Assembly: GCA_030611585.1 (NCBI GenBank)
Contig: JAUWPM010000001.1
Coordinates: forward strand, 1,715-65,714
Direction: 5' to 3'
Length of the DNA: 64,000 nucleotides
Source: Methanosarcinales archaeon
GTDB lineage: Archaea; Halobacteriota; Syntropharchaeia; Alkanophagales; Methanospirareceae
The translations under genes and the position numbers were made by a program. Shown here one piece after another: positions 3,748 through 62,512 of the stretch (position 1 is the stretch's first letter; each line of letters begins with the position of its first letter). The notes under the pieces are model-generated. The model saw only the letters and a list, made by a program, of their open reading frames with translations. It was not told the origin of the DNA and did no database searches.

Positions 3748-3870
3748 GCTCTTTAAGACACAGATTAACACTGATTTACATGGATTTATTTAGGGTGAAG
3801 AACAAAGTTGATTTTTATCATTGTCAGATTAGATTAACCGCAGAGTTCACAGAGAACGCAGAGCAGAGAG
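3748..3870. repeat. MITE-like dispersed repeat (family A, variant right end)
   Basis: Starts ctctttaagacacagattaacactgattta...; shares its left end and core with copies at 8801, 14646, 12821 and 25862. The right end (ttaaccgcagagttcacagagaacgcagag) recurs inverted at 10265-10300. Confidence 0.7.
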
Positions 3871-5144: not shown

Positions 5145-5584
5145 TTTACCGTTTCTCCCTCCTTCAAGATATAATACACGATCACCAGTGAGAACGGCAG
5201 CAAGAACATCTCAGGGCAATATGGCGGGGCATAACTTGCTAAAAAGCCTTCTAAGCTGTTAAACCATGTCTCTTCTCCCGGAATAGAACCTGCTATTCTC
5301 GCCCAGATCGCTATTCCGGCAACTATCCATATCATTATGCTTGCCATTACCGCTTTTGCTAACTGATGGACCTCTGCAAAGTTCTTCACGCTACTTAGAT
5401 AAAAAAAACCAACAGAAAGGAGGATTATCGCCCTCCACGGCAAGAATATGCCTGACATCTCCATGATTCCCCAGCTCGCTTCTCCCGGCACAGTTGCTAT
5501 CAGCTCCGCAACTCCAAACGCCAATGCTACGGCGCCTAAAACCGCAAAATATATCTGCCCGAATTTCTCTTCCGTTTCGTTCAT
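5141..5584 (-). CDS. hypothetical integral membrane protein
   Basis: Four predicted TM helices. Start codon overlaps the stop of the upstream ORF (coupled). Confidence 0.4.
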   Translation of the reverse strand: MNETEEKFGQIYFAVLGAVALAFGVAELIATVPGEASWGIMEMSGIFLPWRAIILLSVGFFYLSSVKNFAEVHQLAKAVMASIMIWIVAGIAIWARIAGSIPGEETWFNSLEGFLASYAPPYCPEMFLLPFSLVIVYYILKEGETVK

Positions 5585-8642: not shown

Positions 8643-8800
8643 TTCTTCTTTCCTCTATATCCCCTATAATGTTAGGGAATGAAAAAACCTGCCCTAAAAA
8701 AGTTCTGTTTTGCTAAAAGAACCTAAATAAGTTAGGTTCTGAACGAAAATCCGAATAAAGTTGGGATTTTGATTGTCTATAAAGTATAACTGCCATAATT

Positions 8801-8945
8801 CTCTTTAAGACGCAGATTTACACTGATTTACGCGGATTTATTTAGGGTGAAGAACAAAGTTGATTTTTATCATTAAGCCCTTTCAGGGCTTGCGGGACGT
8901 GGGCAGAGCCCACGAGCGTTAATCTGTGTCCACAATTTATTTTTT
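8801..8945. repeat. MITE-like dispersed repeat (family A with GC hairpin)
   Basis: ctctttaagacgcagatttacactgatttacgcggatttatttagggtgaagaacaaagttgatttttatcattaagccctttcagggcttgcgggacgtgggcagagcccacgagcgttaatctgtgtc; near-identical to 14646-14796. Confidence 0.8.
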
Positions 8946-9073
8946 CTTGATAAAAACCCTAATTAAGTTCGGGTTCTCCTATGCGCCCTAATCTTGTTAG
9001 GGATCCTTATTTATGCACCTAACAGCCATACACATCTTTAAACAAAAGTTTAGAAAGAAAAGGGGAGATAAAA

Positions 9074-9520
9074 ATGGCGAAGAAGGTAATTTTGGTATTT
9101 GGTTCAACTACTGACAACACGGAAATGTTGTCTGAGCACGTGGCGGAAGGACTTGAGCGAGGAATGGCGTCGGTCACGGTGAAGAACGTGACAGAAGCGA
9201 GCGTTGACGAACTCGCGGATTATGACGCGATCGTATTCGGATGCTCCACATGGGGTGAAGGCGATTTGCAGGATGATTTCGTGGATTTCGACGAAGCTAT
9301 GGACGGCATAGCTCTGGAAGGGAAAAAGGCGGCGGTTTTTGGTCCTGGTGATAGCGAGGAGTACCCGGATTCGTTCTGCACCGCAGTGGACATCCTGGAG
9401 AAAACGCTGAAGAAATGCGGTGCCGAGATTGTTGCCGAAGGCTTCAAAGTTAGCGGCGAGGTTGAACCTGCATTTGGAGACGCCGAAGAGTGGGGATTTA
9501 AGGTTGCAAAAGCGCTTTAG
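9074..9520 (+). CDS. fldA: short-chain flavodoxin
   Basis: 148 aa with the FMN-binding loop GSTTDNTE, CSTWGEGDLQDDF and FGPGDSEEY. Uses TAG as its stop codon. Confidence 0.85.
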   Translation: MAKKVILVFGSTTDNTEMLSEHVAEGLERGMASVTVKNVTEASVDELADYDAIVFGCSTWGEGDLQDDFVDFDEAMDGIALEGKKAAVFGPGDSEEYPDSFCTAVDILEKTLKKCGAEIVAEGFKVSGEVEPAFGDAEEWGFKVAKAL

Positions 9521-9599
9521 CTTTACTTTTGCTTCTGCTTCTGTTCCCTCTTTATTTTTTCCCGCTGCGAGGCGAACCAGAGCAGGATAGAGAGAAGAC

Positions 9600-9989
9600 A
9601 TGAAAGTATTTATTCACCACATTCAGGAGTACAAGAAAGGCTTGAGAACCCTCGTCCTTCATACGACGAAAGCGTCGAACAGAGATGCAATTGAAAAGAG
9701 GTTGGAAAGGGAAAGGATAGATTATTACATTCAAGAGGTCAACGGAACGAAGATAAACGTCTTCTTCGGCAACCCTGCCTGCATCGAAGTGATCAAACAG
9801 ATGAACTTTGAATCGCTGTCGAACTTAACGGATGAGGAGGATTTTATTCTCGGTACGATGCTGGGCTACGATAGGGTAAAGCAGTGCGAGCGGTATCTTA
9901 AACGGAAACGCAATGGCAATACCGTAGAAAAGGTAGGTAGTAAATCCGTCTATCAGTCCCGTACCGAGGCGATTAGTGTTATTATATAG
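9600..9989 (+). CDS. hypothetical protein (129 aa)
   Basis: ORF with a good RBS context; no recognisable family. Confidence 0.4.
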   Translation: MKVFIHHIQEYKKGLRTLVLHTTKASNRDAIEKRLERERIDYYIQEVNGTKINVFFGNPACIEVIKQMNFESLSNLTDEEDFILGTMLGYDRVKQCERYLKRKRNGNTVEKVGSKSVYQSRTEAISVII

Positions 9990-10019
9990 TCAATCACATC
10001 CATTCCACCCGAGAATATA

Positions 10020-10305
10020 GATGATCATTTTATCTGCGTTAATCAGTGTCTATAAAATTTAACTTTCCGACACAGATTTACACTGATTTTTGGCACAACG
10101 AATTCGGGTTAATTTGTGATGACTGACTATATCCTAACTTGACTTTGTCACATTTCAAATTTACCTTGCCGTGGAGAACGCTGAATTAGAGGTTTAGTTT
10201 ATTAGCGGTTCCGCTCGTTAGCTAAACCTCCAAACCTCCAAACCGCTAACCCTCTATCCTCTGCGTTCTCTGTGAACTCTGCGGTTAATCTGACAATGTC
10301 AACCC
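10020..10305. repeat. composite or nested MITE-like repeats
   Basis: Contains gacacagatttacactgattt (family A left end) and gaattagaggtttagtttattagcggttccgctcgttagctaaacctccaaacc (also at 31560-31680). Also contains the inverted copy of the 3835-3870 end, ctctgcgttctctgtgaactctgcggttaatctgacaatg. Confidence 0.7.
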
Positions 10306-11027
10306 AAAAGGCCAATTAATAAAACACAGACCAATCCTAAAATAAGACCTGTAATACCCACTTTTAAATTCTGTCTTATCTGCGCTGCTGGAATCAGTTC
10401 TTCTATTGAGATGTAAGTCATAAACCCTGCTGCAAGTGCAAGTGACGCACCTAACAACTCTAAAGACGTTCCTTTTAAAAAATAGTAGCCGAAAATAAAG
10501 CCGAGCAATTCAAACAGTATTGTCACCGTTACTATAACAAAGGACATCATTCTCTTTTTCGTTAACCCGTATAAAGGAACGATCGTTGCGATATTCTCCG
10601 GCACGTCCTGTGCTGCAATCCCCAATGCTATCACCATTCCCAATGCGGGTGTTAATGCAAATCCAACTCCAATTGCCAATCCTTCCGGTATGTTATGCAA
10701 TGCCATGCCGATAACGAGCATGGTAACGCTTCTTTCGATCGAAGGCTTTTCTTTCTTGAGTAATTCCGGATTTACGTGTGGCAGGGTTCTATCAATAATC
10801 CGGAACGTGACTATCCCAGTGAGAAAAGCAATAATCACTAAGTAAACGGGTGTGATTTCTAAACTTTCGGGTATCAATTGAAAGAACGATATACCCAGCA
10901 TCATCGAAGCGGCAAATGCTAAGGAACCATATAAAAAGGTCTCTTTTGGTTGCTTTATCAGTCCAATTAAACAACCTAAAGTTTGCCCAACAAAGATTAG
11001 GGATATGATTAATAATAGACTATTCAT
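10299..11027 (-). CDS. zupT: ZIP-family divalent metal transporter
   Basis: Multi-TM protein with the ZIP signature HNIPEGLAIGVGF and a His-rich metal-binding region. Confidence 0.8.
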   Translation of the reverse strand: MNSLLLIISLIFVGQTLGCLIGLIKQPKETFLYGSLAFAASMMLGISFFQLIPESLEITPVYLVIIAFLTGIVTFRIIDRTLPHVNPELLKKEKPSIERSVTMLVIGMALHNIPEGLAIGVGFALTPALGMVIALGIAAQDVPENIATIVPLYGLTKKRMMSFVIVTVTILFELLGFIFGYYFLKGTSLELLGASLALAAGFMTYISIEELIPAAQIRQNLKVGITGLILGLVCVLLIGLLG

Positions 11028-11045
11028 TTTTATTGTATATATACT

Positions 11046-11222
11046 ATAACCCCCTTCTCTTTAAGACACTGATTTACACACAACTTTTTTACCTTCGGTA
11101 AAAACATTGACTAAAATATTCCCGATGTTTTTCTTTTAGCACAGGTTTTCTTTTTGACATTGCCGAAGGCAATGGAACGGCTTAGCCGTTCAAAAAAAGA
11201 AAAAGTGTTGTGTCAACAATTT
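11046..11222. repeat. MITE-like dispersed repeat (family B)
   Basis: ctctttaagacactgatttacacacaacttttttaccttcggtaaaaacattgactaaaatattcc...gtgttgtgtcaacaatttgtgttttc; about 95% identical to 22168-22345. Confidence 0.85.
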
Positions 11223-11860
11223 GTGTTTTCTTGTTTCCCCTCAAACGATTTCCGCTCACACAAAAGTATCTTAACAAAATCTACCAGCCCATAAGTTTCT
11301 TTAAGAATACGAAAACAGTGCTCTTGCAGTAAATCCTCAAGATTCCGTTTCGCAAAATCTCTGTAATACTTGCTCTCGTAAAGTGATGTGAATGACACGT
11401 GCAGCCGTCTATGCAATTTGGTCTTTGGAATGTGATAGTCAACAACGATTATTTTCCTGCTAACTCTTCTCATTTCGTCCAGCACACGATGTCTTACCTC
11501 ATAGGGCATATCACGTAGTGCAAAAGAGATACATGCGTAATCGAAATAATCGTTTTCAAATGGCATTTTCGTAGCATCTGCTACCACAAACCGCACATTT
11601 TCATATTTGTTCTTCTTCTCTGCTATTCTCAACATCTCTCTCGATAGGTCAAGCCCAACGACTTCATAACCTCTTTTCGCAAACGCAAAAGCCTGTGTCC
11701 CGGTTCCAGAGCAGACGTCCAGAATTTTTATTTTGGCTTTTGAGTCAATCATGTCTGCAACCTTGTTCCATATACCGGTTAAAGGCAAAGCAATAAAGTT
11801 ATAGACCGATGCCCATTTTCCAAAGAATCCTCGTATGTATCGGTAGTAATTCTCGTCCAT
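11213..11860 (-). CDS. class I SAM-dependent methyltransferase
   Basis: Motif I ILDVCSGTGTQAFAFAKRGYEVVGLDLS and post-I acidic residue. 215 aa. Confidence 0.75.
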   Translation of the reverse strand: MDENYYRYIRGFFGKWASVYNFIALPLTGIWNKVADMIDSKAKIKILDVCSGTGTQAFAFAKRGYEVVGLDLSREMLRIAEKKNKYENVRFVVADATKMPFENDYFDYACISFALRDMPYEVRHRVLDEMRRVSRKIIVVDYHIPKTKLHRRLHVSFTSLYESKYYRDFAKRNLEDLLQEHCFRILKETYGLVDFVKILLCERKSFEGKQENTNC

Positions 11861-11880
11861 TTTACTTTACTGCTTTAATT

Positions 11881-12792
11881 TCAATCTCTCTTTAAAAACC
11901 TGAATACTTCACCCCTTTGCTCAATCAGCGTGAACAAATTTTCCCGTGCAAAGACATTCATAAATTCTTTCGGGTCGAGATGTTCAGCGGTAGCAAAGAG
12001 AATTCCACCCGATTTCAATACCCGGTGCAACTCCTCCAACAATTTCTCCCGGTCACTTATCATCTAGAGCACGTTGTATAATAAAACAACATCTACGCTC
12101 TCGTCTGGCAATCCGGTATCTCTGTCAGAGAGAATCGTTTTGATGTTCGAAAATCTTTTCTTTTTAATCTCTTTCTCAACTGCCCTTATAGCCAGAGGAT
12201 GAATATCCAGAGCATAAACGACGCCATCATCTCCAACCATTTTCGCCGCCGGGATACTGAAGCTTCCTATTCCGCAACTGTAATCCAGAACAGTTTGTCC
12301 TTTCTTGAGCCCCAGCTCACGTAAGGTTCTTTCGGGCTTTTTAGATATGCTGCGTAGGGTTAATATCGTCTTCATTATCGCAAACCCGACACCAGGCATC
12401 ATCAGCTTATCCGTTCCGCGTTTGAATATCAAGCCCCGGAACATCAAAATAGCCACGATGAATTGAGCAGCAGCAATGCCATCAAATACCATAAATATTG
12501 CCATTTTGTCCGTCAGAAACACTGTTAGCCCTAAATGATAAATCATAATGATGGGCGTAAGTGGAATGATAATTAGAGGTATCAGAGCAGCCAGCCAGTG
12601 CCACAACGGCTTATCCGCTCCACTATACTCTTTGAGTGCGAGAATTCCGATGCTGATTGTTAAAGCACCTGCAATTAATCCATATATCACTCCACGCAGG
12701 TAAACAAGACCGTTGATATAGCAAATTACTTTGAATATGGGGTAGAACAAACCCAGTGAGATATAGAAGGCATACTTTTTAATTATTCTCAT
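11881..12792 (-). pseudogene. membrane-anchored class I SAM-dependent methyltransferase interrupted by an in-frame TAG (12064-12066)
   Basis: ORFs 12064-12792 and 11881-12063 are contiguous and in the same frame. The protein reads ...VDVVLLYNVL*MISDREKLLEELHRVLKSGGILF, so the stop falls inside the conserved motif II-III region of a Methyltransf_11-like fold. The N-terminal half has four TM helices. Confidence 0.6.
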
Positions 12793-12820
12793 TTTGTTTT
12801 ATTTTCGTATATAAAGTATA

Positions 12821-12985
12821 ACTGCATTCTCTTTAAGACACAGATTTACACCGATTTCTTCTTCTGTTGGACTAAGCTATTTTTGACGGCATTGATCTTT
12901 TCACCGTATTTTTTGGTAAAACTTTTTGCTTGCAAAAAGGTTTGTGTTAATCTGCGTCAACAATTTAAGTTTTCTTGATATGCGC
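12821..12985. repeat. MITE-like dispersed repeat (family C, same termini)
   Basis: ctctttaagacacagatttacaccgattt...gtgttaatctgcgtcaacaatttaagttttc; the terminal inverted repeat aagacacagatt / gttaatctgcgtc is retained. Confidence 0.7.
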
Positions 12986-13837
12986 TTGAGAATATTTCGG
13001 AGGAGTGCTCCACCACATCATCACTGCGGAATGCTTCTCTTTACGCAGACCCTTCTCCAAGACGTATTGCTCGATGATTCCCTTCACGTGCGCATCAACC
13101 TCCACGTACTTACCGATAAAACTCGCTATGTACCTTACTTCCTGCTCGAAGTTCCGCTCTACGCTGTAATTCGGCATTCGCACATTCACCGACCTTCCCC
13201 ATTGACGCAGGATTAAGTAAACGAAGTAATCGGCATCGGGGTCAAATTGACCAGTATAATCCTCCCCGGTTATTTTTGTCCACATTTCCGTTACTATATT
13301 ATCTCTTCCCGCAGGTTGTATCACCGCGCAATATCTCCGTGAAGCTTTTTCCATCTTCTTCAAATGCTTCTCAAGGTCTTTTACTTGCCACAAGAAATGA
13401 GAACACACGGCTAAATCGAATCTGTCTTTGATTTCAGGATCGCTAACGTCCAACCAGTTTTTAGTCATTATTTCAACGTTCTCAACCTGGCTTTCCTTCA
13501 GGTTCCTCCTCAGATATTCCACTGCCAGTTCGGAAGATTCAACACACACTATCCTCTTCACCTTCTCGGCTAACGGTACGGTCAGCGTTCCCGGACCCGC
13601 GCCTATTTCCAGAACTTCAAAGTTCTTATTTAGTATCTCGCTCAACGCCTCTACTGCTGTCCTGCCATATTCGTAATCGTTGTATTTCGCCACCTCGGAA
13701 TAGTCCGCAGCGAATTTAGCTCGGAATTCCTGGTCGTAGCCTATTTTCAAGGGCTTCATTCTCTGCTTCTGCATCTCTTCCCAGACTTCTCGCCAATTCA
13801 ATTCTTTCATCCTACTATTAAATTTTCTATCGGACAT
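12965..13837 (-). CDS. class I SAM-dependent methyltransferase
   Basis: Motif I VLEIGAGPGTLTVPLAEKVKRIVCVESS. 290 aa. Confidence 0.7.
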   Translation of the reverse strand: MSDRKFNSRMKELNWREVWEEMQKQRMKPLKIGYDQEFRAKFAADYSEVAKYNDYEYGRTAVEALSEILNKNFEVLEIGAGPGTLTVPLAEKVKRIVCVESSELAVEYLRRNLKESQVENVEIMTKNWLDVSDPEIKDRFDLAVCSHFLWQVKDLEKHLKKMEKASRRYCAVIQPAGRDNIVTEMWTKITGEDYTGQFDPDADYFVYLILRQWGRSVNVRMPNYSVERNFEQEVRYIASFIGKYVEVDAHVKGIIEQYVLEKGLRKEKHSAVMMWWSTPPKYSQAHIKKT

Positions 13838-13845
13838 ACAAAACT

Positions 13846-14643
13846 TTATACCCTCCTCCCGCTTAAATACCCGATTCCCCAGATATTAGCGAGCCTGCCG
13901 AGATTGACACCCGCTTCCTTAAAACCCACAAACTTCGCGTTTTCAATACCCATCTGCTGCACCTTTTCGAGTAGTTCGGGCATGTTCTTCACTTTATATG
14001 CTTTCAAGAAAGAACCGCTAAAAGGGTCGCATATCACGAACACGCCATCAGGTGCGAGTACCCGAATAACTTCTTTGAGGAGGACTATTCGGTCAGGCAC
14101 TTTAATCTCGTGAAAGGCAAATGAACTTACTACTAATTGAAATTCTCCATCCTCGAACGGCAGGTCAAGCGCACTATCAGTTTGGAATGTGCATCTGTTA
14201 CTCACACCTTCTAATCTAGCATTTCTCTCCGCACCTGCTTTCGTCATCCCAAATAGTTTCCAGCCTTTCGTCCACGTATCCACGCCAATTACCTGCGATT
14301 CTGGAAACCGCTTAGCTATTTCGATTGCCACCCGACCAAGTCCTGTTCCAATATCCAGCACTTTACCATTGCCAGCCCAGACGTTTCTTAACAGGTCCAA
14401 GAAATTATCCTTTACGAGTTCTATCTTCTCAGGATCATTCACCCAGCCCATCGAAAGATGCCAGAACGCACCTGAGGAGAGTAAGATCACTCCTAAAACC
14501 CCGCATAAAATAGAACTCCCGGTGGTTGTGAAAACAATTGCAATTGCAAGTGCTATGCTTACAATTCCACCCGCGATTAAAGCCATGATGAAGTATTTCA
14601 TCAGACGGTATCCATAATATGGCTCTACAAGTTTTTCTTTCAT
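13846..14643 (-). CDS. membrane-anchored class I SAM-dependent methyltransferase
   Basis: Two N-terminal TM helices, then VLDIGTGLGRVAIEIAKRF...VGVDTW and VLAPDGVFVICD. Confidence 0.7.
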   Translation of the reverse strand: MKEKLVEPYYGYRLMKYFIMALIAGGIVSIALAIAIVFTTTGSSILCGVLGVILLSSGAFWHLSMGWVNDPEKIELVKDNFLDLLRNVWAGNGKVLDIGTGLGRVAIEIAKRFPESQVIGVDTWTKGWKLFGMTKAGAERNARLEGVSNRCTFQTDSALDLPFEDGEFQLVVSSFAFHEIKVPDRIVLLKEVIRVLAPDGVFVICDPFSGSFLKAYKVKNMPELLEKVQQMGIENAKFVGFKEAGVNLGRLANIWGIGYLSGRRV

Positions 14644-14645
14644 GT

Positions 14646-14796
14646 TTCTCTTTAAGACACGGATTTACACTGATTTACGCGGATTTATTTAGGGTGAAGA
14701 ACAAAGTTGATTTTCATCATTAAGCCCTTTCAGGGCTTGTGGGACGTGGGCGGAGCCCACGAGCGTTAATCTGCGTCAACAATTTAGGTTTTCTTT
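14646..14796. repeat. MITE-like dispersed repeat (family A with GC hairpin)
   Basis: Near-identical to 8801-8945, including the gggacgtgggcggagcccacgagcg hairpin and the ttaatctgcgtcaacaatttaggttttc right end. Confidence 0.8.
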
Positions 14797-14817
14797 TTCC
14801 TCTTTTCTTTTTGCTTT

Positions 14818-15498
14818 TCAATAGACAAACGGTATCACCTTTTTAGTAGTCCTCTCACAATATTCCTCCCATTCCTTACTGAATTCTTGGTGCAGCATCT
14901 TTTCTTCTTTTGTGATACGAATCAACATTAAGAAGCTCATTATAGCTGCCAATACTAAAGCAGGAATGGAAACAAAAACCAAAGCAAGCCCAAACACCCA
15001 GAAAATAATCCCGCTGTATCTCGGATGTCTCATATAGCTGTAGGGACCGTCAGTAACCAATTTATGCTCTTCTTGAATTGTAACATACGCACTGAATTGT
15101 TCGCCTAAGTGTAGCGGACCCCAGACCATAAAAAGATACCCAATAAGAAAGACAATCAGCCCGGAATAACGCAGGACGTCTCCGCCACCCATCACAAAGA
15201 GATTATGGCTTTCTGAGTAAGGGGCAACGAACACTATCAGGAATCCAATCAAGCTTGGAAGCATCACACCAGTCAATTTTTCCTTTGGGTCCACCTTTTC
15301 GCCCTTCTTATTGAATTCTACTCCAAACCTGTTTTTGAATAGCATGGTCAACGTGTTCACGGTAATCGTAACGGCAAACAGTATTGTCCTTGCAGGATGT
15401 GAGAAGAAGCCGTGAATATCGTTAATTCCCCAGCCAAATAGAATTAATAGTGCATAAACCACACCAAAGATGATTGCAGGCATTATTTTCTTAAACAT
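14818..15498 (-). CDS. isoprenylcysteine carboxyl / phospholipid methyltransferase (ICMT/PEMT) family membrane methyltransferase
   Basis: Multi-TM protein with the C-terminal motif MRHPRYSGIIFWVFGLAL...EE typical of ICMT-family enzymes. Confidence 0.7.
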   Translation of the reverse strand: MFKKIMPAIIFGVVYALLILFGWGINDIHGFFSHPARTILFAVTITVNTLTMLFKNRFGVEFNKKGEKVDPKEKLTGVMLPSLIGFLIVFVAPYSESHNLFVMGGGDVLRYSGLIVFLIGYLFMVWGPLHLGEQFSAYVTIQEEHKLVTDGPYSYMRHPRYSGIIFWVFGLALVFVSIPALVLAAIMSFLMLIRITKEEKMLHQEFSKEWEEYCERTTKKVIPFVY

Positions 15499-22081: not shown

Positions 22082-22167
22082 CGCTTCAGCTCTGATCTGA
22101 CCGAACTAAAAATCACAATTTCGCAATTTTGATTTCTTGTTGTATATAAATATAACTGCCACAATTC

Positions 22168-22345
22168 TCTTTAAGACACAGATTAACACACAACTTTTTT
22201 ACCTTCGGTAAAAACCTTGACTAAAATATTCCTGATGTTTTTCTTTTAGCACAGGTTTTCTTTTTGACATTGCCGAAGGCAATGGAATGGCTTCGCCGTT
22301 CAAAAAAAGAAAAAGTGTTGTGTCAACGATTTAGGTTTTCTCGCT
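22168..22345. repeat. MITE-like dispersed repeat (family B)
   Basis: Near-identical (a few SNPs) to 11046-11222. Confidence 0.85.
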
Positions 22346-22398
22346 TACGCAATACGAAAACTTTTTTATTGACGTAGCGATATTAAAGAAGGATATAG

Positions 22399-25845: not shown

Positions 25846-25861
25846 AGAACAAGAAAATAAA

Positions 25862-25965
25862 TTATTTATAGACACAGATTGACACAGATGATAAAAATCA
25901 ACACGGTTAAACTAAAATAAATCCGCGTAAATCAGTGTTAATCTGCGTCTTAAAGAGAAGGAAGT
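25862..25965. repeat. MITE-like dispersed repeat (family A, inverted orientation, short)
   Basis: ...gtgttaatctgcgtcttaaagag is the reverse complement of the ctctttaagacgcagattaacac terminus. Confidence 0.7.
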
Positions 25966-25988
25966 TATACTTCATATACAACGAGAAA

Positions 25989-26876
25989 ATGGAAATCGAG
26001 GACACCTACTGCGAGGCATTTGATGGTTTATTCACAAGGATATGTGTAACCGGGAGTGATGAGAAGAGATTGAAACAGGCGGCTTACAACGCTACGGCAC
26101 TGCCCTGCACGGTCTTTGGCGAATCCGAAGGGGGAATAGAGAAGTGGTTGAATGAGCACGAAACGCCAGACGGGAGGAAAGGGGCTGTAATTCAAATCTG
26201 GGTGAATTACGGTGAGGACGCTCCTGAAAAGCTGGAATACGAAGCATCGAAACGAATACGGCAGGGGATACTGGTTGTGCCCACGACTTCGGTCTTCAAC
26301 GCGATTGATTCGCCTGATGACAAGATTGACGTTGTGGACAGGATAGGGCATTGCGGCGATGGCTACGAGACAATTGAGCAGCGGTTCGGACGTGAAGTGG
26401 TCGTGGTGCCGATAATGATGGGCGAATTTCTCGTGGAACACTATTTGGGTTACCAGAAGGGCGTGATGGGTGGAAACGTCTGGTTCTTCTGCAAAAGTAT
26501 AGAAGCATCATTAGAAGCGGGAGAGATGGCGCTCGCAGCAATAAACAGCGTAGAAGGTGCGATTACTCCTTTTGATATTTGCTCTGCGGGCTCCAAGCCG
26601 GAAACGAACTATCCTGAGATCGGTCCTACGACGAACCACCCGTATTGCCCGACGTTAAGGCAGAAACTAAGTGGGTCGAATGTTCCAGACGGTGTACAGA
26701 GCATTCCGGAAATCGTTATTAATGGGGTGTCGCTCGACTCGGTAAAAGAGGCGATGAAAGCAGCGATAGAGAGTGTGCGTGGGGTTGATGGCGTGGTAAG
26801 AATCTCAGCAGGTAATTACGGCGGTAAATTGGGGAGCTATAAGATATTTTTGAAGGAGTTGTCACAGAAGAACTAA
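25989..26876 (+). CDS. ftr: formylmethanofuran--tetrahydromethanopterin N-formyltransferase
   Basis: MEIEDTYCEAFDGLFTRICVTG is the canonical Ftr N-terminus. 296 aa from the internal Met; the ORF extends upstream to 25935. Confidence 0.88.
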   Translation: MEIEDTYCEAFDGLFTRICVTGSDEKRLKQAAYNATALPCTVFGESEGGIEKWLNEHETPDGRKGAVIQIWVNYGEDAPEKLEYEASKRIRQGILVVPTTSVFNAIDSPDDKIDVVDRIGHCGDGYETIEQRFGREVVVVPIMMGEFLVEHYLGYQKGVMGGNVWFFCKSIEASLEAGEMALAAINSVEGAITPFDICSAGSKPETNYPEIGPTTNHPYCPTLRQKLSGSNVPDGVQSIPEIVINGVSLDSVKEAMKAAIESVRGVDGVVRISAGNYGGKLGSYKIFLKELSQKN

Positions 26877-27164
26877 ACGAGGTAAAATAAAAAAGTGCGG
26901 AGATTCGTTAAATGAATTGATGAAAGGCAAATGACAATGAAAAAGCCAAATACTACCAAATCCTAAAGGATATAAAGATACCAAAAGATATATCTGTATA
27001 CAACAAGAATAGACTATAATTGGCGAAAGAGATGAAAAAAGTACCCACAGAAGAGGAGATGCTTGAAGCGATAAAGAAAAACCCAAAAATCATGGAGATT
27101 TGGGGTGCGTTGAAAGACATCATTCCAGAGGCAGTGGTTGATGTGAAGGAGCGGAGAAAGCGAC

Positions 27165-27782
27165 ATGAAAGTCTTGGTCATAGCAGAGACTAATTGGATT
27201 GAGGATATTGCATTGGCGCAAGATCTAAGATCCGCATACTTACTCGAACTAAGGGATAAAGGGGAGATTGATATCGCAATTCCTGCCTATTCCTTGCATG
27301 AGGCAGATGGGTCGTTGGATAGAAAAATTACAAAGCGGATTGAAAAGATTGATAACTTCTTACATTTTCTTAGCAAGGTTGCACAAAGTAAACCTCATGA
27401 GAATCTTTGCAGCATCGTAAAGGACGGGTTAAAGGAGCTCAAATCTAAAAGTTTAGAGGAACGGGAGGCGATCAAGCGGGTTTTAAATAAAATCAAAATG
27501 AGCATTGATGTAATCCCTTACACGATGACCGTAGCTCTTAACGCTGATTTGAGGTCGGAATCATCCATAGCGCCATTTAAAGAGGCTGATTGCAGAATTT
27601 ATGAATCTGTTTTGGAATATATTCGAGATAAAGGGTACGACTACGATTTAAAGGTCTTTTATACTGCAGATAGAGAAGATTTTGACAATGAGATGATCTA
27701 TGCAGAATTGGAAGAAATAGATGTGAAATTGTATTTCGATGCAGGAGAGGTTGTTGAGCGTGTTTATGAAGTGGTGGGGTAG
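27165..27782 (+). CDS. hypothetical protein (possible PIN-like domain), preceded by a small overlapping ORF
   Basis: MKVLVIAETNWIEDIA at the N-terminus. A 55-codon ORF (about 27034-27200) overlaps its start. Confidence 0.3.
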   Translation: MKVLVIAETNWIEDIALAQDLRSAYLLELRDKGEIDIAIPAYSLHEADGSLDRKITKRIEKIDNFLHFLSKVAQSKPHENLCSIVKDGLKELKSKSLEEREAIKRVLNKIKMSIDVIPYTMTVALNADLRSESSIAPFKEADCRIYESVLEYIRDKGYDYDLKVFYTADREDFDNEMIYAELEEIDVKLYFDAGEVVERVYEVVG

Positions 27783-27927
27783 GAATGTTAGATAAGTCTA
27801 AATATAGTTTCTTATATCAAAAGTTCTTCATACTCTAAACTTTGCTTTTGCTTTAACATACGCATCACTTTTTTTCAATGCTGTTCTTAACATACAATAG
27901 TTGTTGATAAAAATAGCAAGGATAAAG

Positions 27928-29067: not shown

Positions 29068-29252
29068 GTAGTTTAATAAAGAGGTGAGTATGTCCTCCAG
29101 AAAGGATGATGCCATGACTAATTGACATGGGTGGGAGCGAGTAGGGGAGGGTTCGCCGATTTTTTTATTTTTTGCTACTTTCCACACATTCACCCGAATT
29201 GCAGTTCGTCTTTACAGCAAGTTATTTGAAGACTCTGCGTAGTTTTTAAAAT

Positions 29253-29727: not shown

Positions 29728-31266
29728 CTATTCTGTGTTCTTTTTCTCAGATCGCAGTTCTTTGAGTTTCTGTTCGTATAATTGCTTAAATCTTTGGAAG
29801 GACTCGCGGTCTTGTTCCACTATGTTTGATTCGTACCCTCGAATTGCAGTTTTGACGAACTCTTCGTTTAAAAGAGTTAATTCTGCAAGACTGACGGCCG
29901 CAATCTCAGTCACACGTTCAAAACCTTTTTTAGTGGCGGACATTCTAACTGCTACAAGAGCCAGTGCTGCTTGCTGTGTTGCATCTTTAAGATTATTTTT
30001 CGCTGCGGCTATTCCAACAGTTTTAAGATGCATTACCACACTAAATATTGCCTCTTTTAACTCTTTTTCCACCGCAATTTCTCCAATAGCGTGAAGAGAC
30101 TCTACTGCCCACTTTGTCGCGTTCACAAAACCTTTTTCTGCAGTTTTACTTCCGATTTCTCCAAGACTACTTACTGCCGTGGTAGTTAGATTTTTAATTC
30201 TTTTTACTGCAGCAGTTCTTCCAACTTCTCCAAGACTACTTACTGCTGCTGTTGCCGCTCTTTCAAGCTCTTTTTCCGCAGCAATTCTTCCAATGCCTCC
30301 AAGATTCAATGCTACCATAAGTGTTGTATATTCAAGCTCTTTTTCCGCAGCAATTCTTCCGATTAAATTAAGAAAACTTAATGCTCTGGTTGTCGCATCT
30401 TCAAATCTATTTTCTGCTGTTGATCTTCCGAATTTTCCTAAATTATTCACAACTTCTAAAGCGGCTTCTTCATCCTCCTTACTTATAGCTAATTTGCTAA
30501 CTCGTTCTAAATGCGTACAAAAACGCTCGGAAATCTCTTTTTCTCCATCAGAATCAATAATTTCGATTACCCGCTCAGTCACCGCTTTCAACCCAACCCG
30601 CATCGTTGCAATGTCATATCTCATGATAGAACCGTGCACTATATCCATAATGGGCTGAATGGGGTCTTCTTTCGGTTTCAAAATGGCATCTTTGGTAATA
30701 TCGGCTGTCAATCGGTTTATGATATTGACGGGATTCAAAAGATCTATAATACTGAGTATATACCGAAATAGCATCAAAAAAGAAAAAATACCGAGAAAAT
30801 ATGCACAGATAATGTGGATTTCAATTGGATAATTAAAAAGGGAGATTTCTCTTAGATCACCATCCCTTATTGTTTTCAAAATCAAAAGCCCATAAAATAT
30901 GGAGTGCCCATACAAAGCCAAAAGTAGCCACACATCAGGATTATTTCTGAAAATGCGAATTACTCGCGGTGAATACGCAGAAGCGGAAAGTTGAACGGCA
31001 ATCAAGGTCAGCGATACGACGATAGCAACGATTGCCGCCTGACTTTGAACCAGTGCACTGAGCATGTATCTGGCACTATTGGCATCAGTATGAAAAAGAT
31101 TGAAATAAGCAAATAGAACAGTACCAACAAAACTAAATAATATTGCAAGAACGTTGTACTCAAAAATACGTTTAGTCCAGAGTTTTCCGTAACTTACCCA
31201 CTGATCACGCGCTTTGTTCTTGATGCTTTTCAAAAACCCCTTTAAATCCTTTTTCTCATCATCCAT
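29728..31266 (-). CDS. membrane-anchored HEAT/PBS-lyase-like repeat protein
   Basis: N-terminal four to five TM helices, then at least eight tandem 19-20 aa repeats (...LGEIGSKTAEKGFVNATKWAVESL...). The corresponding DNA (about 29990-30480) is a tandem array of near-identical 57-60 bp units. Confidence 0.6.
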   Translation of the reverse strand: MDDEKKDLKGFLKSIKNKARDQWVSYGKLWTKRIFEYNVLAILFSFVGTVLFAYFNLFHTDANSARYMLSALVQSQAAIVAIVVSLTLIAVQLSASAYSPRVIRIFRNNPDVWLLLALYGHSIFYGLLILKTIRDGDLREISLFNYPIEIHIICAYFLGIFSFLMLFRYILSIIDLLNPVNIINRLTADITKDAILKPKEDPIQPIMDIVHGSIMRYDIATMRVGLKAVTERVIEIIDSDGEKEISERFCTHLERVSKLAISKEDEEAALEVVNNLGKFGRSTAENRFEDATTRALSFLNLIGRIAAEKELEYTTLMVALNLGGIGRIAAEKELERAATAAVSSLGEVGRTAAVKRIKNLTTTAVSSLGEIGSKTAEKGFVNATKWAVESLHAIGEIAVEKELKEAIFSVVMHLKTVGIAAAKNNLKDATQQAALALVAVRMSATKKGFERVTEIAAVSLAELTLLNEEFVKTAIRGYESNIVEQDRESFQRFKQLYEQKLKELRSEKKNTE

Positions 31267-31559
31267 GTGAACAACATAATATAAGGTATTACTTAAGTCT
31301 TACCATGATTTGATGCATTCTGAGAATGCTAAATCCGAACCACACCAAACATTCGATTAGTGTACACGAGTGCAAACGCCAGCACGGTAAAGATTAGCGT
31401 GCCAATTATTAACGTTTTGTTTGTCCCGATTCGCGAGCTCAGCCATACAATCGCTAACGCATACGGTATCTAGAGGGGTATGGAGAGCAGACAGGACTTC
31501 GCCGTTAATGCTACTGCGGCATCGCCCGCGGATTACCAGAGTTTTACCGCAGAGTACGC

Positions 31560-31680
31560 GGAATTAGAGGTTTAGTTTATTAGCGGTTCCGCTCGTTAGC
31601 TAAACCTCCAAACCGCTAACCCTCTAACCCGCTATCCCTCTATCCTCTGTGGTCTCTTTGGTCTCTGCGCTCTCGGCGGT
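31560..31680. repeat. dispersed repeat shared with 10170-10270
   Basis: gaattagaggtttagtttattagcggttccgctcgttagctaaacctccaaaccgctaaccctcta... Confidence 0.7.
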
Positions 31681-34689: not shown

Positions 34690-34999
34690 TGTATTATTAT
34701 TGTAGTACTAAGGTAGTGGCGAGACGTTTAAAAGATACGCGATTGGTCTTTCTCGTATCCGAAGAAAGAGACATTTTCCGTCAACGCGTTTCTTCTTAAA
34801 GAAAAGGGTTATGAATGAGCATAGCAGCGATCCAGAGTTCCCAAGTGCTCGCGCAACTCAGTACAGTAAGGAACGCTGACGGGCTTATCTGCCGGGTTCG
34901 GAATGAGACCGGGAGTTTCCCCGCCGCTATGGCCGCTATGCCCATTTAGAGTATGATATTTTTTCTACTTAAAAAGGTTGTTGCGAAACCAGCAGGAAA

Positions 35000-35055
35000 A
35001 AAAAAACGAAAACCTTTTTATATCGAACAGTTTTATATTGCATATCGAAGGTGAA
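35000..35055 (+). promoter_or_regulatory. archaeal BRE/TATA promoter with conserved downstream operator (first of six or more copies)
   Basis: aaaaaacgaaaaCCTTTTTATATCGAACAGttttatattgCATATCGAAGGtg lies directly upstream of ATG 35061. The same architecture occurs at 38421, 39745, 40441, 48225 and 54285. Confidence 0.6.
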
Positions 35056-47934: not shown

Positions 47935-48135
47935 TCGTGAAATAAGCCCGTACATGGTTTTCGGGGACGTGGGCAGTGCCCACGATGCGGGGGCACGGGC
48001 GGAGCCACACATAAAAAAGTCTCTCTAGTGAAACTTCCTTTTTCAAAGAGACATATTCTTTCTTAGCACAGGTTCTTTCTACGAGAAAGAAAGTGTTGTG
48101 CAATCTGGTGGTTACAACTTTAACTTTAAACCACG
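47935..48135. repeat. MITE-like repeat fragments (family A hairpin and family B-like core)
   Basis: ggggacgtgggcagtgcccacgatgcgggggcacgggcggagcc ... ttctttcttagcacaggttctttctacgagaaagaaagtgttgtgcaatctgg resembles 8900-8930 and 11120-11210. Confidence 0.6.
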
Positions 48136-55858: not shown

Positions 55859-56141
55859 AGGGAGAGAGGAAGGGCAGCTGCCGGTCTTCTTTTTTTTAAG
55901 AGGGCTGAGGAAAGTCCCCCCACCATAAATAAGGATAAAACACGAACGCCGGGAGGGCGTAAGGCGAGAGTCTTGGCTCTGGTATAGAAACGATACCGTG
56001 CCATACTAAGTAACGTGATGATTCCGTGAGGATGAATTCGTATGGTTGCGGATGGAACGACCAACCTCGTGGGTGCAAGCCTGAGGAAGGCGCGAAGATA
56101 AATGCTGCTGAAACAGAAGGGGGCTTACTCTCCTCACTCCC
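55859..56141 (+). ncRNA. rnpB: RNase P RNA (archaeal type A-like)
   Basis: Universal P4 strands are present: GAGGAAAGTCC (55908-55918) and ACAGAAgggGGCTTA (56113-56127). The 5' GGGAGAGAGG can pair with the 3' CCTCACTCCC as P1. Overlapping ORFs on the minus strand are not credible. Confidence 0.7.
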
Positions 56142-62214: not shown

Positions 62215-62239
62215 CCAGCCCGTACTTGTTTAGCTAACC

Positions 62240-62420
62240 ACAAGATTACACATCACGGGCTCCGCCCGTGCCCCCGAAAACCCTGGAAGGGTTTATTCCA
62301 CGAGAGAATAACAATCGTAACCAAGTTTTAGCGCTTTATTGGTTACTTTATCCTTTATTAATCCAAATTTCTTGTGTTAATTATGGGGCTCTGCCCCATG
62401 TCCCCGCAAGCCCAGAAGGG
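62240..62420. repeat. MITE-like repeat fragments (GC hairpin type)
   Basis: cacgggctccgcccgtgcccccg and ggggctctgccccatgtccccgcaagcccagaaggggc resemble the 8900-8930, 14750-14780 and 47950-48000 hairpins. Confidence 0.5.
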
Positions 62421-62512
62421 GCTTATGTGAAATCTCGTGGTTTTTTACATCAGCTATACAAATACATACCAACGATTTTACATGATTCAATATCTTCTTC
62501 GCGGTTCCTGCT

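Follow-up and report, generated by a model that had tools for sequence, protein, structure and literature searches.

What kind of repeat lies in the gaps between genes of the 64,000-nucleotide stretch of contig JAUWPM010000001.1 that was analysed here as a whole (the window), and does it move as a classical transposon does? An earlier note on this DNA had described a single family of small, intergenic, non-autonomous elements with copies at eleven loci, and had taken them for elements like MITEs (miniature transposable elements with inverted repeats). The repeats are indeed non-autonomous, non-coding and multi-copy, and their mobility is demonstrated below by three orthologous sites that occur both empty and filled. 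The assignment to the classical MITE type did not hold, because the true ends of the element are asymmetric, no target-site duplication (TSD) was seen and the orientation relative to genes is biased. The interpretation that we favour, with a probability of roughly 0.6, is a family of non-autonomous mobile elements of ANME-1 archaea that insert as whole units, without TSD, beside a T-run and mostly antisense to the neighbouring genes, and that are served by an enzyme acting in trans. In the literature, searches on MITEs of ANME-1, on MITEs of archaea that bear a TATA box and on the sequences of the arms returned nothing relevant, and we found no description of this small non-autonomous mobile repeat in the literature searched.

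The 13-bp inverted-repeat core of the family (GACRCAGATTAAC) was matched 11 times in the window with at most one mismatch, against 0.11 matches expected, and none of 100 shuffled sequences reached 11. BLAST, repeat finding and nhmmer profiles of both ends placed the family at eight loci between 3.7 and 26 kb, and copy density in the window is roughly one per 8 kb. Two pairs of copies, 8801/14646 and 11055/22165, are 94% and 95% identical, respectively. Eight of the eleven loci listed earlier were thereby confirmed (3748, with its first nucleotide at 3749, 8801, 10020, 11046, 12821, 14646, 22168 and 25862, the last one inverted, as had been said). The loci at 31560, 47935 and 62240 gave no match to the end profiles and belong to other repeats, named family C, the GC double hairpin and family G; three or four distinct families had been merged into one. 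For the description of the element, about 55 copies were gathered from ANME metagenome-assembled genomes (MAGs) and metagenomes (19 loci from a scan of species-representative genomes, 28 from a scan of JGI metagenomes, with further copies from orthologous contigs) and aligned on their conserved ends. Individual loci outside the window are cited by their L numbers.

The host is an ANME-1 (Methanophagales) methane-oxidising archaeon. Rfam identified an archaeal RNase P RNA (55862-56139), a lone 5S rRNA (34819-34940, minus strand), a tRNA and a DUF3800-X RNA in the window. The closest homologs of the ftr product (formylmethanofuran-H4MPT formyltransferase, 25989-26876), with 76-97% identity, lie in records labelled ANME-1, Methanophagales, Methanophagaceae or Methanospirare, and exact-pattern matches to the element came from cold-seep MAGs labelled ANME-1, Methanophagales or "Methanosarcinales archaeon". 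A cyanobacterial MITE of the Nezha type was dropped as a candidate in view of the archaeal RNase P RNA and the ANME-1 homologs of ftr. Since the host is archaeal, which the earlier note had missed, promoters and terminators have to be read by archaeal logic, i.e. as transcription factor B recognition elements (BRE) with TATA boxes and as oligo-T termination.

The element is 130-200 bp long (330 bp in one copy), contains no conserved open reading frame (ORF) and is composed of 40% T and 33% G+C. Its parts follow in the order T-rich flank, P module, left arm, interior, right arm, tail and unrelated flank. The P module, a left module of 32 nt with TATA-like boxes (TTGTATATAAAGTATAACTGCCTTCTCTTTAA), opens with TTGTATATAAAG and reads from the boundary TTG, TATATAAAGTATAAC, TGCC (with or without 4 further nt), TT and CTCTTTAA; the left end as a whole follows the pattern TTGTATATAAAGTATAAC...CTCTTTAAGAC. 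The left arm consists of three phased 10-nt units, GAC-RCAGATTWAC-ACTGATTTAC-RCGGATTTAT, with the unit consensus CNGATTWACR, and the right arm of two or three inverted units (...GTTAATCTGYG...) ending in GTC, the outermost pair being GACRC...GYGTC. Between these AT-rich arms lies an interior of 20-250 nt, which belongs to one of at least 6 unrelated and interchangeable types. A T-rich tail of 19 nt (AACAATTTAGGTTTTCTYG) ends in CTYG. The right boundary is sharp, with conservation ending after ...TTTTCTYG and a right flank devoid of consensus. Of the 50 left flanks, 31-46 have T at positions -7 to -2 and 26 have A at position -1. The repeat ends given in the earlier note (ctctttAAGACrCAGATTwACAC on the left and GTTAATCTGyGTCaacaatttaggttttc on the right) are correct, and its terminal inverted repeats of about 13 bp correspond to the outer 13 bp of the arms, which pair best. 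The arms themselves are about 30 nt long (2-3 units) and subterminal, and the copy described as 8801-8945 extends from 8773 to 8949, with a 28-nt TATA-like module (TTGTATATAAAGTATAACTGCC..TT) before CTCTTT and a tail that runs to ...TTTTCTTG. In the 387 kb of loci searched, 53 of the 56 occurrences of P are followed by a left arm, and P occurs nowhere else in the window. This coupling to the arms indicates that P is part of the element, and we rejected the idea that it is a general promoter of the genome, the motif being found only beside element arms.

Direct evidence for mobility came from orthologous sites compared between strains. Between the aldolase gene and ftr, the loci L022 and L024 (97-98% identical to the window) and L025 and L026 (about 88%) are empty and join GAGGTAGA directly to CGAGAAAATG. 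In the window a 132-nt element lies at exactly that point, the junction GGTAGA|CGAGAAAATG, and in L045 (about 90% identical) the same nucleotide bears an element of another subtype together with a second hairpin unit and a small gene of the GxxExxY type. Between the methyltransferase and ZIP genes, L031 is empty (...GGGGAAA directly followed by GGATAAAAATG...), and both the window and L060 are filled, with identical boundaries but different interiors, of type 3 in the window and of type 2 in L060. Upstream of icd, L027 and L025 are empty, with GAGGTAAAC adjoining GTGAAATG, and in L045 an element separates GAGGTAAAA from TGGAAAATG. This precise presence/absence polymorphism at three orthologous sites shows that the elements are truly mobile and that movement was recent.

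The resolved sites also reveal a common geometry. In each case the element has entered the gap that separates a Shine-Dalgarno sequence from its start codon, 5-10 nt upstream of the ATG, and its P end faces the downstream gene. The target directly 5' of the element is a T-run, which on the gene strand is an A-rich stretch 0-18 nt upstream of the start codon; at ftr the target, TTTTCTCG on the element's strand, is identical to a frequent form of the 3' terminus of the element itself. Elements of different subtypes were found at one nucleotide position both at ftr and at ZIP, and the strain closest to the window is empty at ftr. Judging from these sequences, the same position may have been hit repeatedly, or interiors may have been exchanged between copies.

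The claim that copies adjoin gene starts and stops was borne out across the wider collection. In about 24 of the 50 copies examined for this, the ATG of an ORF lies between -1 and +18 nt from the boundary of P; six of them read CAATG, with the ATG overlapping their terminal CAA. At the other end, the tail often supplies the last codons and the stop of the upstream gene, as in QEN(T/L)NC* of the methyltransferase at 11213-11860 and of purE in L054, and in 5 cases tail and upstream stop codon overlap by 21 nt. Of the 38 full, non-redundant copies, 15 lie antisense and 4 sense between co-directional genes. Runs of at least five T number 39 on the element's plus strand versus 13 on the minus strand. 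With such T-runs on its own strand, a sense copy within an operon would be expected to terminate archaeal transcription, which is enough selective reason for part of the orientation bias.

We looked for duplicated flanks at the three resolved junctions (ftr, ZIP and icd) and found none. This bears directly on the classical MITE, i.e. a deletion derivative of an insertion sequence (IS) of the DDE type, with terminal inverted repeats of about 13 bp, staggered cutting, TSDs and random orientation. The small size, the lack of coding capacity, the copy number, the inverted repeats with conserved ends and variable interiors, and the insertion polymorphism are all as such a derivation would have them. 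Besides the missing TSD, however, the true ends, which are not inverted copies of each other, lie 32 nt and 19 nt outside the inverted repeats, the orientation relative to genes is 15:4, the T-run is present on one flank only, and neither the window nor about 390 kb of related loci nor the collection scans yielded a partner IS. We consider a MITE origin improbable. Taken together, the absence of a TSD, the recurrent use of a site, the resemblance of the target to the tail and the tandem junctions described below argue against a DDE enzyme with staggered cuts, and favour a conservative site-specific or a single-strand mechanism.

In the interpretation that we favour, each unit is a hairpin module, made of two inverted arms with phased 10-bp units and a swappable interior, set between two different conserved ends. 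An enzyme supplied in trans would move it with no staggered cuts. One candidate is a tyrosine or serine recombinase acting on a circle junction between tail and P, which would read ..GGTTTTCTTG followed by TTGTATATAAAG.. and whose T-run core would resemble the target. A DEDD enzyme of the IS110/IS1111 type and a single-strand enzyme of the HUH type are further candidates, and a DDE transposase seems unlikely. The phased 10-bp units of the arms would be the likely binding sites of the enzyme. The orientation bias would arise from the asymmetric target combined with selection against sense T-runs.

Several points weigh against this interpretation or parts of it. The class of mechanism is read solely from the junction anatomy of three sites. 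A TSD of 1-3 A/T residues may be hidden within the A-rich junctions, and at ftr an imperfect duplication of 9-10 bp (ACAAGAAAAT and ACGAGAAAAT) may be present if the end of the tail is counted as target. The differing interiors at one site may reflect gene conversion between copies instead of repeated insertion, and the orientation bias may be due entirely to selection. The strong conservation of the P module is not explained by a purely selfish model. An autonomous partner with matching ends was found neither in the window nor in about 390 kb of related ANME-1 loci nor among the pattern matches, of which 19 were in genomes, 28 in metagenomes and 19 in viral contigs. Since many of the copies stem from fragmented MAGs, the copy numbers and the lack of long elements are biased by assembly breaks at repeats. 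In agreement with the earlier note, no transposase or integrase Pfam domain was detected among the 50 window proteins scanned. The only transposase seen, an rve-domain gene in L027 (7352-8587), was rejected as a partner because its inverted repeats are unrelated, and solitary arm matches in L019 and L033 were set aside as due to chance.

The P module raises the question of what an insertion does to the gene behind it. A role of the elements as promoters or terminators, suggested in the earlier note, is plausible on sequence grounds. The module holds a perfect outward TTTATATA at -11 to -4 and, about 24 nt from the boundary, CTTAAAGA, which like a TTTAAG box resembles the box CTTTTTAAG of the native 5S promoter. 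It also holds an inward TATATAAA, whose end is 22-23 nt from the GAC with which the left arm begins, or 26-27 nt where P has the 4-nt insert. In the native 5S rRNA and RNase P RNA genes, 27 nt lie between TATA and the 5' end of the RNA. As a native promoter reference we used a promoter-like block of 49-67 nt, AAAAACCGAAAACCTTTTTATATCGAA...GCATATCGAAGGTGA, which comprises BRE, TATA, leader and Shine-Dalgarno sequence and lies upstream of solute-binding, surface-protein and ftsZ genes at 35001, 38421, 39747, 40445, 48221 and 54284 of the window. The CGAAAA-type BRE of the native promoters was found beside none of the boxes of P in either direction.

These boxes could mean that the element is a portable expression cassette, mobile but kept where it lands because P provides the start of transcription and translation through its TATA-like boxes and a CAA initiator, turning the adjoining gene, now parted from its Shine-Dalgarno sequence, into a leaderless or short-leader unit. 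At ftr, icd and ZIP the gene is intact and the element lies between its Shine-Dalgarno sequence and its ATG, which agrees with this proposal, as does the CAATG overlap, for which the weaker CTTAAAGA box would put the start at the boundary; TTTATATA at its position is like a promoter-proximal AT element, and P is more conserved than the arms to which it is always coupled. Because the insertions part intact essential genes from their Shine-Dalgarno sequence, some expression signal borne by the element is plausible. On the other hand, a BRE is lacking at all boxes, read-through from upstream genes would be adequate within operons, and copies devoid of P also lie 4-20 nt from start codons. The perfect TATA TTTATATA fits poorly by its geometry and was rejected as a promoter of the neighbouring gene: it would start transcription about 20 nt past the boundary, inside most of the adjoining ORFs, whose ATG lies 0-18 nt from it. 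On the sequence features at hand we regard the cassette as doubtful. Similarly tentative is a bolder combination, in which TSD-less, oriented mini-elements with arms common to ANME-1 and tailed viruses would have acquired an archaeal promoter module and become mobile promoters moved by an unknown recombinase. If that were true, each insertion between a Shine-Dalgarno sequence and an ATG would rewire the downstream gene, including ftr of reverse methanogenesis, into a leaderless transcription unit.

The inward box and the folding of the element raise another alternative, namely a family of small RNA genes transcribed from an inward P promoter, with the start at the GAC of the left arm, a long hairpin and an end at the T-run of the tail. 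The spacing from TATATAAA to GAC is close to the native 27 nt, folding is good (z-scores from -2.7 to -8; -44.4 kcal/mol and z = -4.5 for the copy at 8773-8949), the plus strand folds better than the minus strand in 33 of 39 copies, and the tail ends in a T-run. Better folding of the plus strand may, however, reflect its G+T richness. The interiors are unrelated between subtypes, the T5 run in the commonest interior should terminate transcription before the right arm, no BRE is present, and the insertion polymorphism and recurrent occupation of sites are marks of DNA mobility. In Rfam 15 no match overlapped any copy at gathering thresholds, and none was found at E<=1 in 8700-15000. We also rejected RNA covariation in the arms: pairing is clean over the outer 13 bp, inward of these the arms have systematic mismatches (T.T and A.C), R/Y positions vary independently on each arm, and there are no compensatory changes. 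The arms look more like two arrays of phased protein-binding sites than like a selected RNA helix, and a small RNA gene family appears an improbable account of the repeat.

Units also occur in tandem. In L016 a tail directly abuts a second P module, and compact tail/P spacers of 13-18 nt link units in L045, L008, L025 and at 10020-10092 of the window. Short-read contigs from the source samples (L063 1-176 and the start of L064) stop or turn chimeric exactly inside element arms, which means that the family fragments ANME-1 metagenome assemblies. A search for contigs resembling transcripts of ftr likewise yielded only short DNA contigs, broken or chimeric within the element. A side observation concerns L045, where the small GxxExxY-type gene between aldolase and ftr (5195-5570) has hairpin units on both sides, and its ATG abuts an inside-out arm junction; this arrangement suggests that genes can travel between tandem units.

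An integron-like system would account for such arrangements if the hairpins were attC-like sites and the genes between them (methyltransferases, ZIP, flavodoxin, toxin-antitoxin and GxxExxY) were cassettes shuffled by an integrase. The arm motifs GATTAAC/GTTAATC are one mismatch from the attC core RYYYAAC/GTTRRRY, interiors are variable, five consecutive gaps at 8.7-14.8 kb bear units, and the gene content beside elements varies by strain (the methyltransferase at 12965-13837, the hairpin-flanked GxxExxY gene of L045). Starts near the boundaries, stops inside the element and the better folding of one strand would likewise agree. Yet no gene is carried by the units inserted at ftr, ZIP and icd, the elements lie scattered among core housekeeping genes (ftr, asd, icd, purE and proC) and do not form one array, no integrase is encoded nearby among the scanned proteins, and the crossover lies 19-32 nt outside the hairpin, not in the R' core. 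An integron is thus very unlikely.

In the window, the copy first noted (8773-8949, plus strand) is a full one and is 94% identical to 14646-14795. It consists of the P module (8773-8800), CTCTTTAA (8801-8808), a left arm of three 10-nt units (8809-8843), an interior, a nested GC double-hairpin mini-element (8875-8917), a terminal right-arm unit (8918-8930) and the tail (8931-8949). At 3749-3822 (plus) lies a partial copy with CTCTTTAA, left arm and type-1 interior that lacks the P module and the right arm and is joined at 3823 to a family C fragment (GTCAGATTAGATTAACCGCAGAGTTCACAGAGAACGCAGAG). The repeat previously placed at 10020-10305 does exist at 10020-10092 (plus) but is not a whole element; it is an inside-out unit composed of a right-arm fragment (..ATCTGCGTTAATCAGTGTC), an 18-nt compact spacer (TATAAAATTTAACTTTCC) and a left arm (GACACAGATTTACACTGATTT), an arrangement identical to the junction type found between tandem hairpin units. 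A 92% identical unit occurs in L025/L026 in a different context, and analogous junctions are present in L008 and L045.

Two full plus-strand copies follow. The one at 11033-11233, with a type-3 interior of several small hairpins, comes within 5 nt of the ZIP start codon (gene at 10299-11027, minus) with its P end, and its tail encodes the last 6 codons and the stop (QENTNC*) of the methyltransferase at 11213-11860. The other, at 12805-12977 with a type-2 interior, has its P end 12 nt from the ATG of the gene at 12064-12792 (minus), and its tail overlaps the stop codon of the methyltransferase at 12965-13837. The plus-strand copy at 14648-14796 contains a nested GC double hairpin (14722-14764) and lacks the P module, and a distance of 4 nt separates it from the start codon (ATG) of the methyltransferase at 13846-14643; P and about 10 N-terminal codons were probably lost by a deletion between microhomologies, TTAAAG in the element and TTAAAG in the gene. 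The full copy at 22140-22343 (plus), with a type-3 interior and the P variant bearing the 4-nt insert, is 95% identical to 11055-11231 and is also present in strain L022. It is among the few sense-oriented copies, being the only clear one in the window, and follows the end of a TPR gene; the next gene, for FBPase, has its own BRE/TATA at about 22352-22372. The full copy at 25850-25981 (minus), with a type-4 interior, fills the gap between the aldolase stop (25845) and the ftr start (25989) and parts the ancestral Shine-Dalgarno sequence from the ftr ATG.

The repeats that had been counted with the family turned out to be related to it in part. Family C is represented at 3823-3870, 10160-10296 and 31544-31669 of the window and at 10407-10532 of L022; it has ends like GTCAGATTAACCGCAGAGTTCACAGAGAACGCAGAG and ACCGCAGAG..CAGAGAACGCAGAG, short interior repeats of the AAACCTCC/AACCGCTAACCC type and a ...CAGATTAAC motif in common with the main family. 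Family G is found at 62230-62450 of the window, inside L018, at the ends of L002, L040 and L050 and at 5150-5260 of L060. Its ends read AACCACAAGATTACACA ... CTTGTGTTAAT ... GTGRAATCTCGTGGTTTTTTAC and CCACAAGATTA(A)CAC, its window copy holds nested GC double hairpins, and the L060 copy is a hybrid with P and left arm of the main family. Families C and G, too, end in ...AGATTA(A)C.... The internal GC hairpin said to be present in many copies occurs in only 2 of the 8 in the window (8875-8917 and 14722-14764) and is a separate mini-element of about 43 nt (AAGCCCnnnnGGGCTT plus CGTGGGCnnnGCCCACG), which is nested in other repeats, also at 62255-62290 and 62386-62425, or stands alone (47943-48005). 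Its copies differ by stem-preserving changes (GTGGGC/GCCCAC versus ACGGGC/GCCCGT), which suggests selection for hairpin formation in the mini-element.

The arm motif reaches beyond ANME-1. The ANME-specific patterns of P, left end and tail had 0 matches in IMG/VR, whereas the arm motif alone (GACRCNGATTWACRCNGATTWAC) matched 19 tailed-virus contigs there (L065-L083) versus about 1 expected from a rough estimate of the collection size. Their G+C content is 41-62%, and terminase, portal and tape-measure proteins are encoded in them. A T-run plus A directly precedes the viral arm, which is often accompanied by CCACAGAGNACACAGAG repeats resembling family C; a start codon often follows the arm after about 10 nt, and once the downstream ORF reads through a second arm (L069 2520-2611). 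BLAST against phage and plasmid collections gave no meaningful match, only a simple CACAGAG repeat of the viral relatives being matched in Bacteroides and Gemmatirosa records. Going by these motifs, the hairpin arm is part of a wider and undescribed group of small repeats, of which the ANME-1 family is a lineage-specific version that gained P and tail. P may have been gained by co-mobilisation of the flank of a master copy, and CTCTTTAA followed by GAC looks like a fossil T-run+A target.

Some features of the surrounding genes are of interest in their own right. Between 11 and 18 kb a cluster of at least 8 S-adenosylmethionine (SAM)-methyltransferase genes lies beside feoAB, ZIP and DtxR-type metal genes. 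An extra methyltransferase (12965-13837) and its adjoining element are present in the window and absent between the orthologous neighbours in ANME-1 GoMg1 (L060) and L062. The spacer between ftr and icd is variable among strains (26877-27900 in the window, 5895-6942 in L022, and also L045, L025 and L027). It holds a PIN-domain gene in the window and a 72-aa gene and a PemK toxin gene in the 97%-identical strain (L022); in L045 a hairpin element is all that it contains, and in L025 and L027 it is empty. The DUF3800-X RNA motif (RF02984, 55.6 bits), here in an archaeal genome, lies just 3' of icd at 29082-29158. A DUF2254 membrane-protein gene (29728-31266, minus) includes six tandem 69-nt repeats (29986-30363). 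Between 40.5 and 50.7 kb, paralogous surface-protein genes with Big_2 and PGF-CTERM domains contain 12-nt CACCAAC-type repeats that encode low-complexity linkers, and their gene blocks at 44.0-44.9, 48.4-49.6 and 49.9-50.5 kb share 61-80% mutual identity.

ANME-1 archaea, which are uncultured, play a central part in the oxidation of methane in the sea, and little has been described of their mobile DNA. The family differs between 97%-identical strains and lands between the ribosome-binding site and the start of ftr, icd and asd without destroying these genes, which raises the questions of how translation and transcription start in ANME-1 after an insertion and which enzyme moves a 130-bp element without target duplication. 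The arm motif in common with tailed viruses could mark exchange between virus and host or across domains, and the recombinase could become a genetic tool. Should the repeats be merely tolerated selfish DNA, they would still be worth annotating as a repeat family whose insertion signature is unusual.

Among known systems, Correia elements (CREE/NEMIS) of Neisseria and ERIC, RUP and BOX are similar in being non-coding, high-copy intergenic repeats of 100-200 bp whose arms form a long transcribed hairpin, in lying in operons near gene starts and stops, in bearing promoter-like boxes in their ends and in having no known resident transposase. Correia elements differ by truly terminal 26-bp inverted repeats and by duplicating a TA target, whereas the ANME-1 element, in an archaeal host, inserts at a T-run without TSD, its ends beyond the repeats are asymmetric and its arms are phased by 10 bp. 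Sulfolobus MITEs (SM1-SM4) and other archaeal ones are likewise small, non-autonomous and chromosomal, with an enzyme acting in trans. The terminal inverted repeats of these MITEs match known ISC elements and their target is duplicated, and neither feature is found in the ANME-1 element. REPs are GC-rich palindromes of 20-40 bp with GTAG or CGTC tags (PMC3733652). The GACG with which the arms begin brought a REP with a CGTC tag into consideration, but a REP/BIME affiliation was rejected for reasons of size, composition and structure, and in view of the absence of a GTAG tag and of RAYT genes from the loci.

The IS110/IS1111 group is similar in the absence of TSD, a single orientation, a preferred sequence, subterminal inverted repeats and, as judged from the three resolved sites, a position between Shine-Dalgarno sequence and ATG. 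IS900 inserts between ribosome-binding site and start codon, and IS1111 has subterminal inverted repeats, which at about 12 bp are much shorter than the ANME-1 arms. A DEDD transposase, a bridge or seek RNA and a full-length element were not found here, and to our knowledge non-autonomous derivatives of the IS110/IS1111 family are not a described class. HUH elements (IS200/IS605, PATE and REP/BIME; IS91 and Helitron-like elements) share with the ANME-1 family the absence of TSD, tandem arrays, variable 5' extent, strand-biased folding, a hairpin about 19 nt from the 3' end and insertion 3' of a motif resembling their own 3' end (flank ...TTTTCTCG compared with the end ...TTTTCTYG). The ends of IS200/IS605 are two separate small hairpins, unlike the single hairpin between both ends of the ANME-1 element, the target here is a loose T-run, and no TnpA, RAYT or Rep gene was found in the loci. 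Mini integrative elements with attP-like sites (CIME/IMEX), which rely on a site-specific recombinase of the host or of foreign origin, resemble the family in the putative circle junction of tail and P, which would lie between inverted, 10-bp-phased repeats, like arm-type sites around a core, in a T-rich core common with the target, in the absence of duplication, in the single orientation and in tandem integration beside a resident copy (L016, L045). Known ones measure kilobases and use one or few sites (tRNA genes, dif), compared with about 130 bp and dozens of sites for the ANME-1 element, for which no recombinase was identified. By analogy, then, the family appears to act like intergenic hairpin repeats of the Correia/ERIC/REP type in its effects, and to carry an insertion signature like that of IS110/IS900, IS1111, IS91, IS200-type or mini integrative elements.

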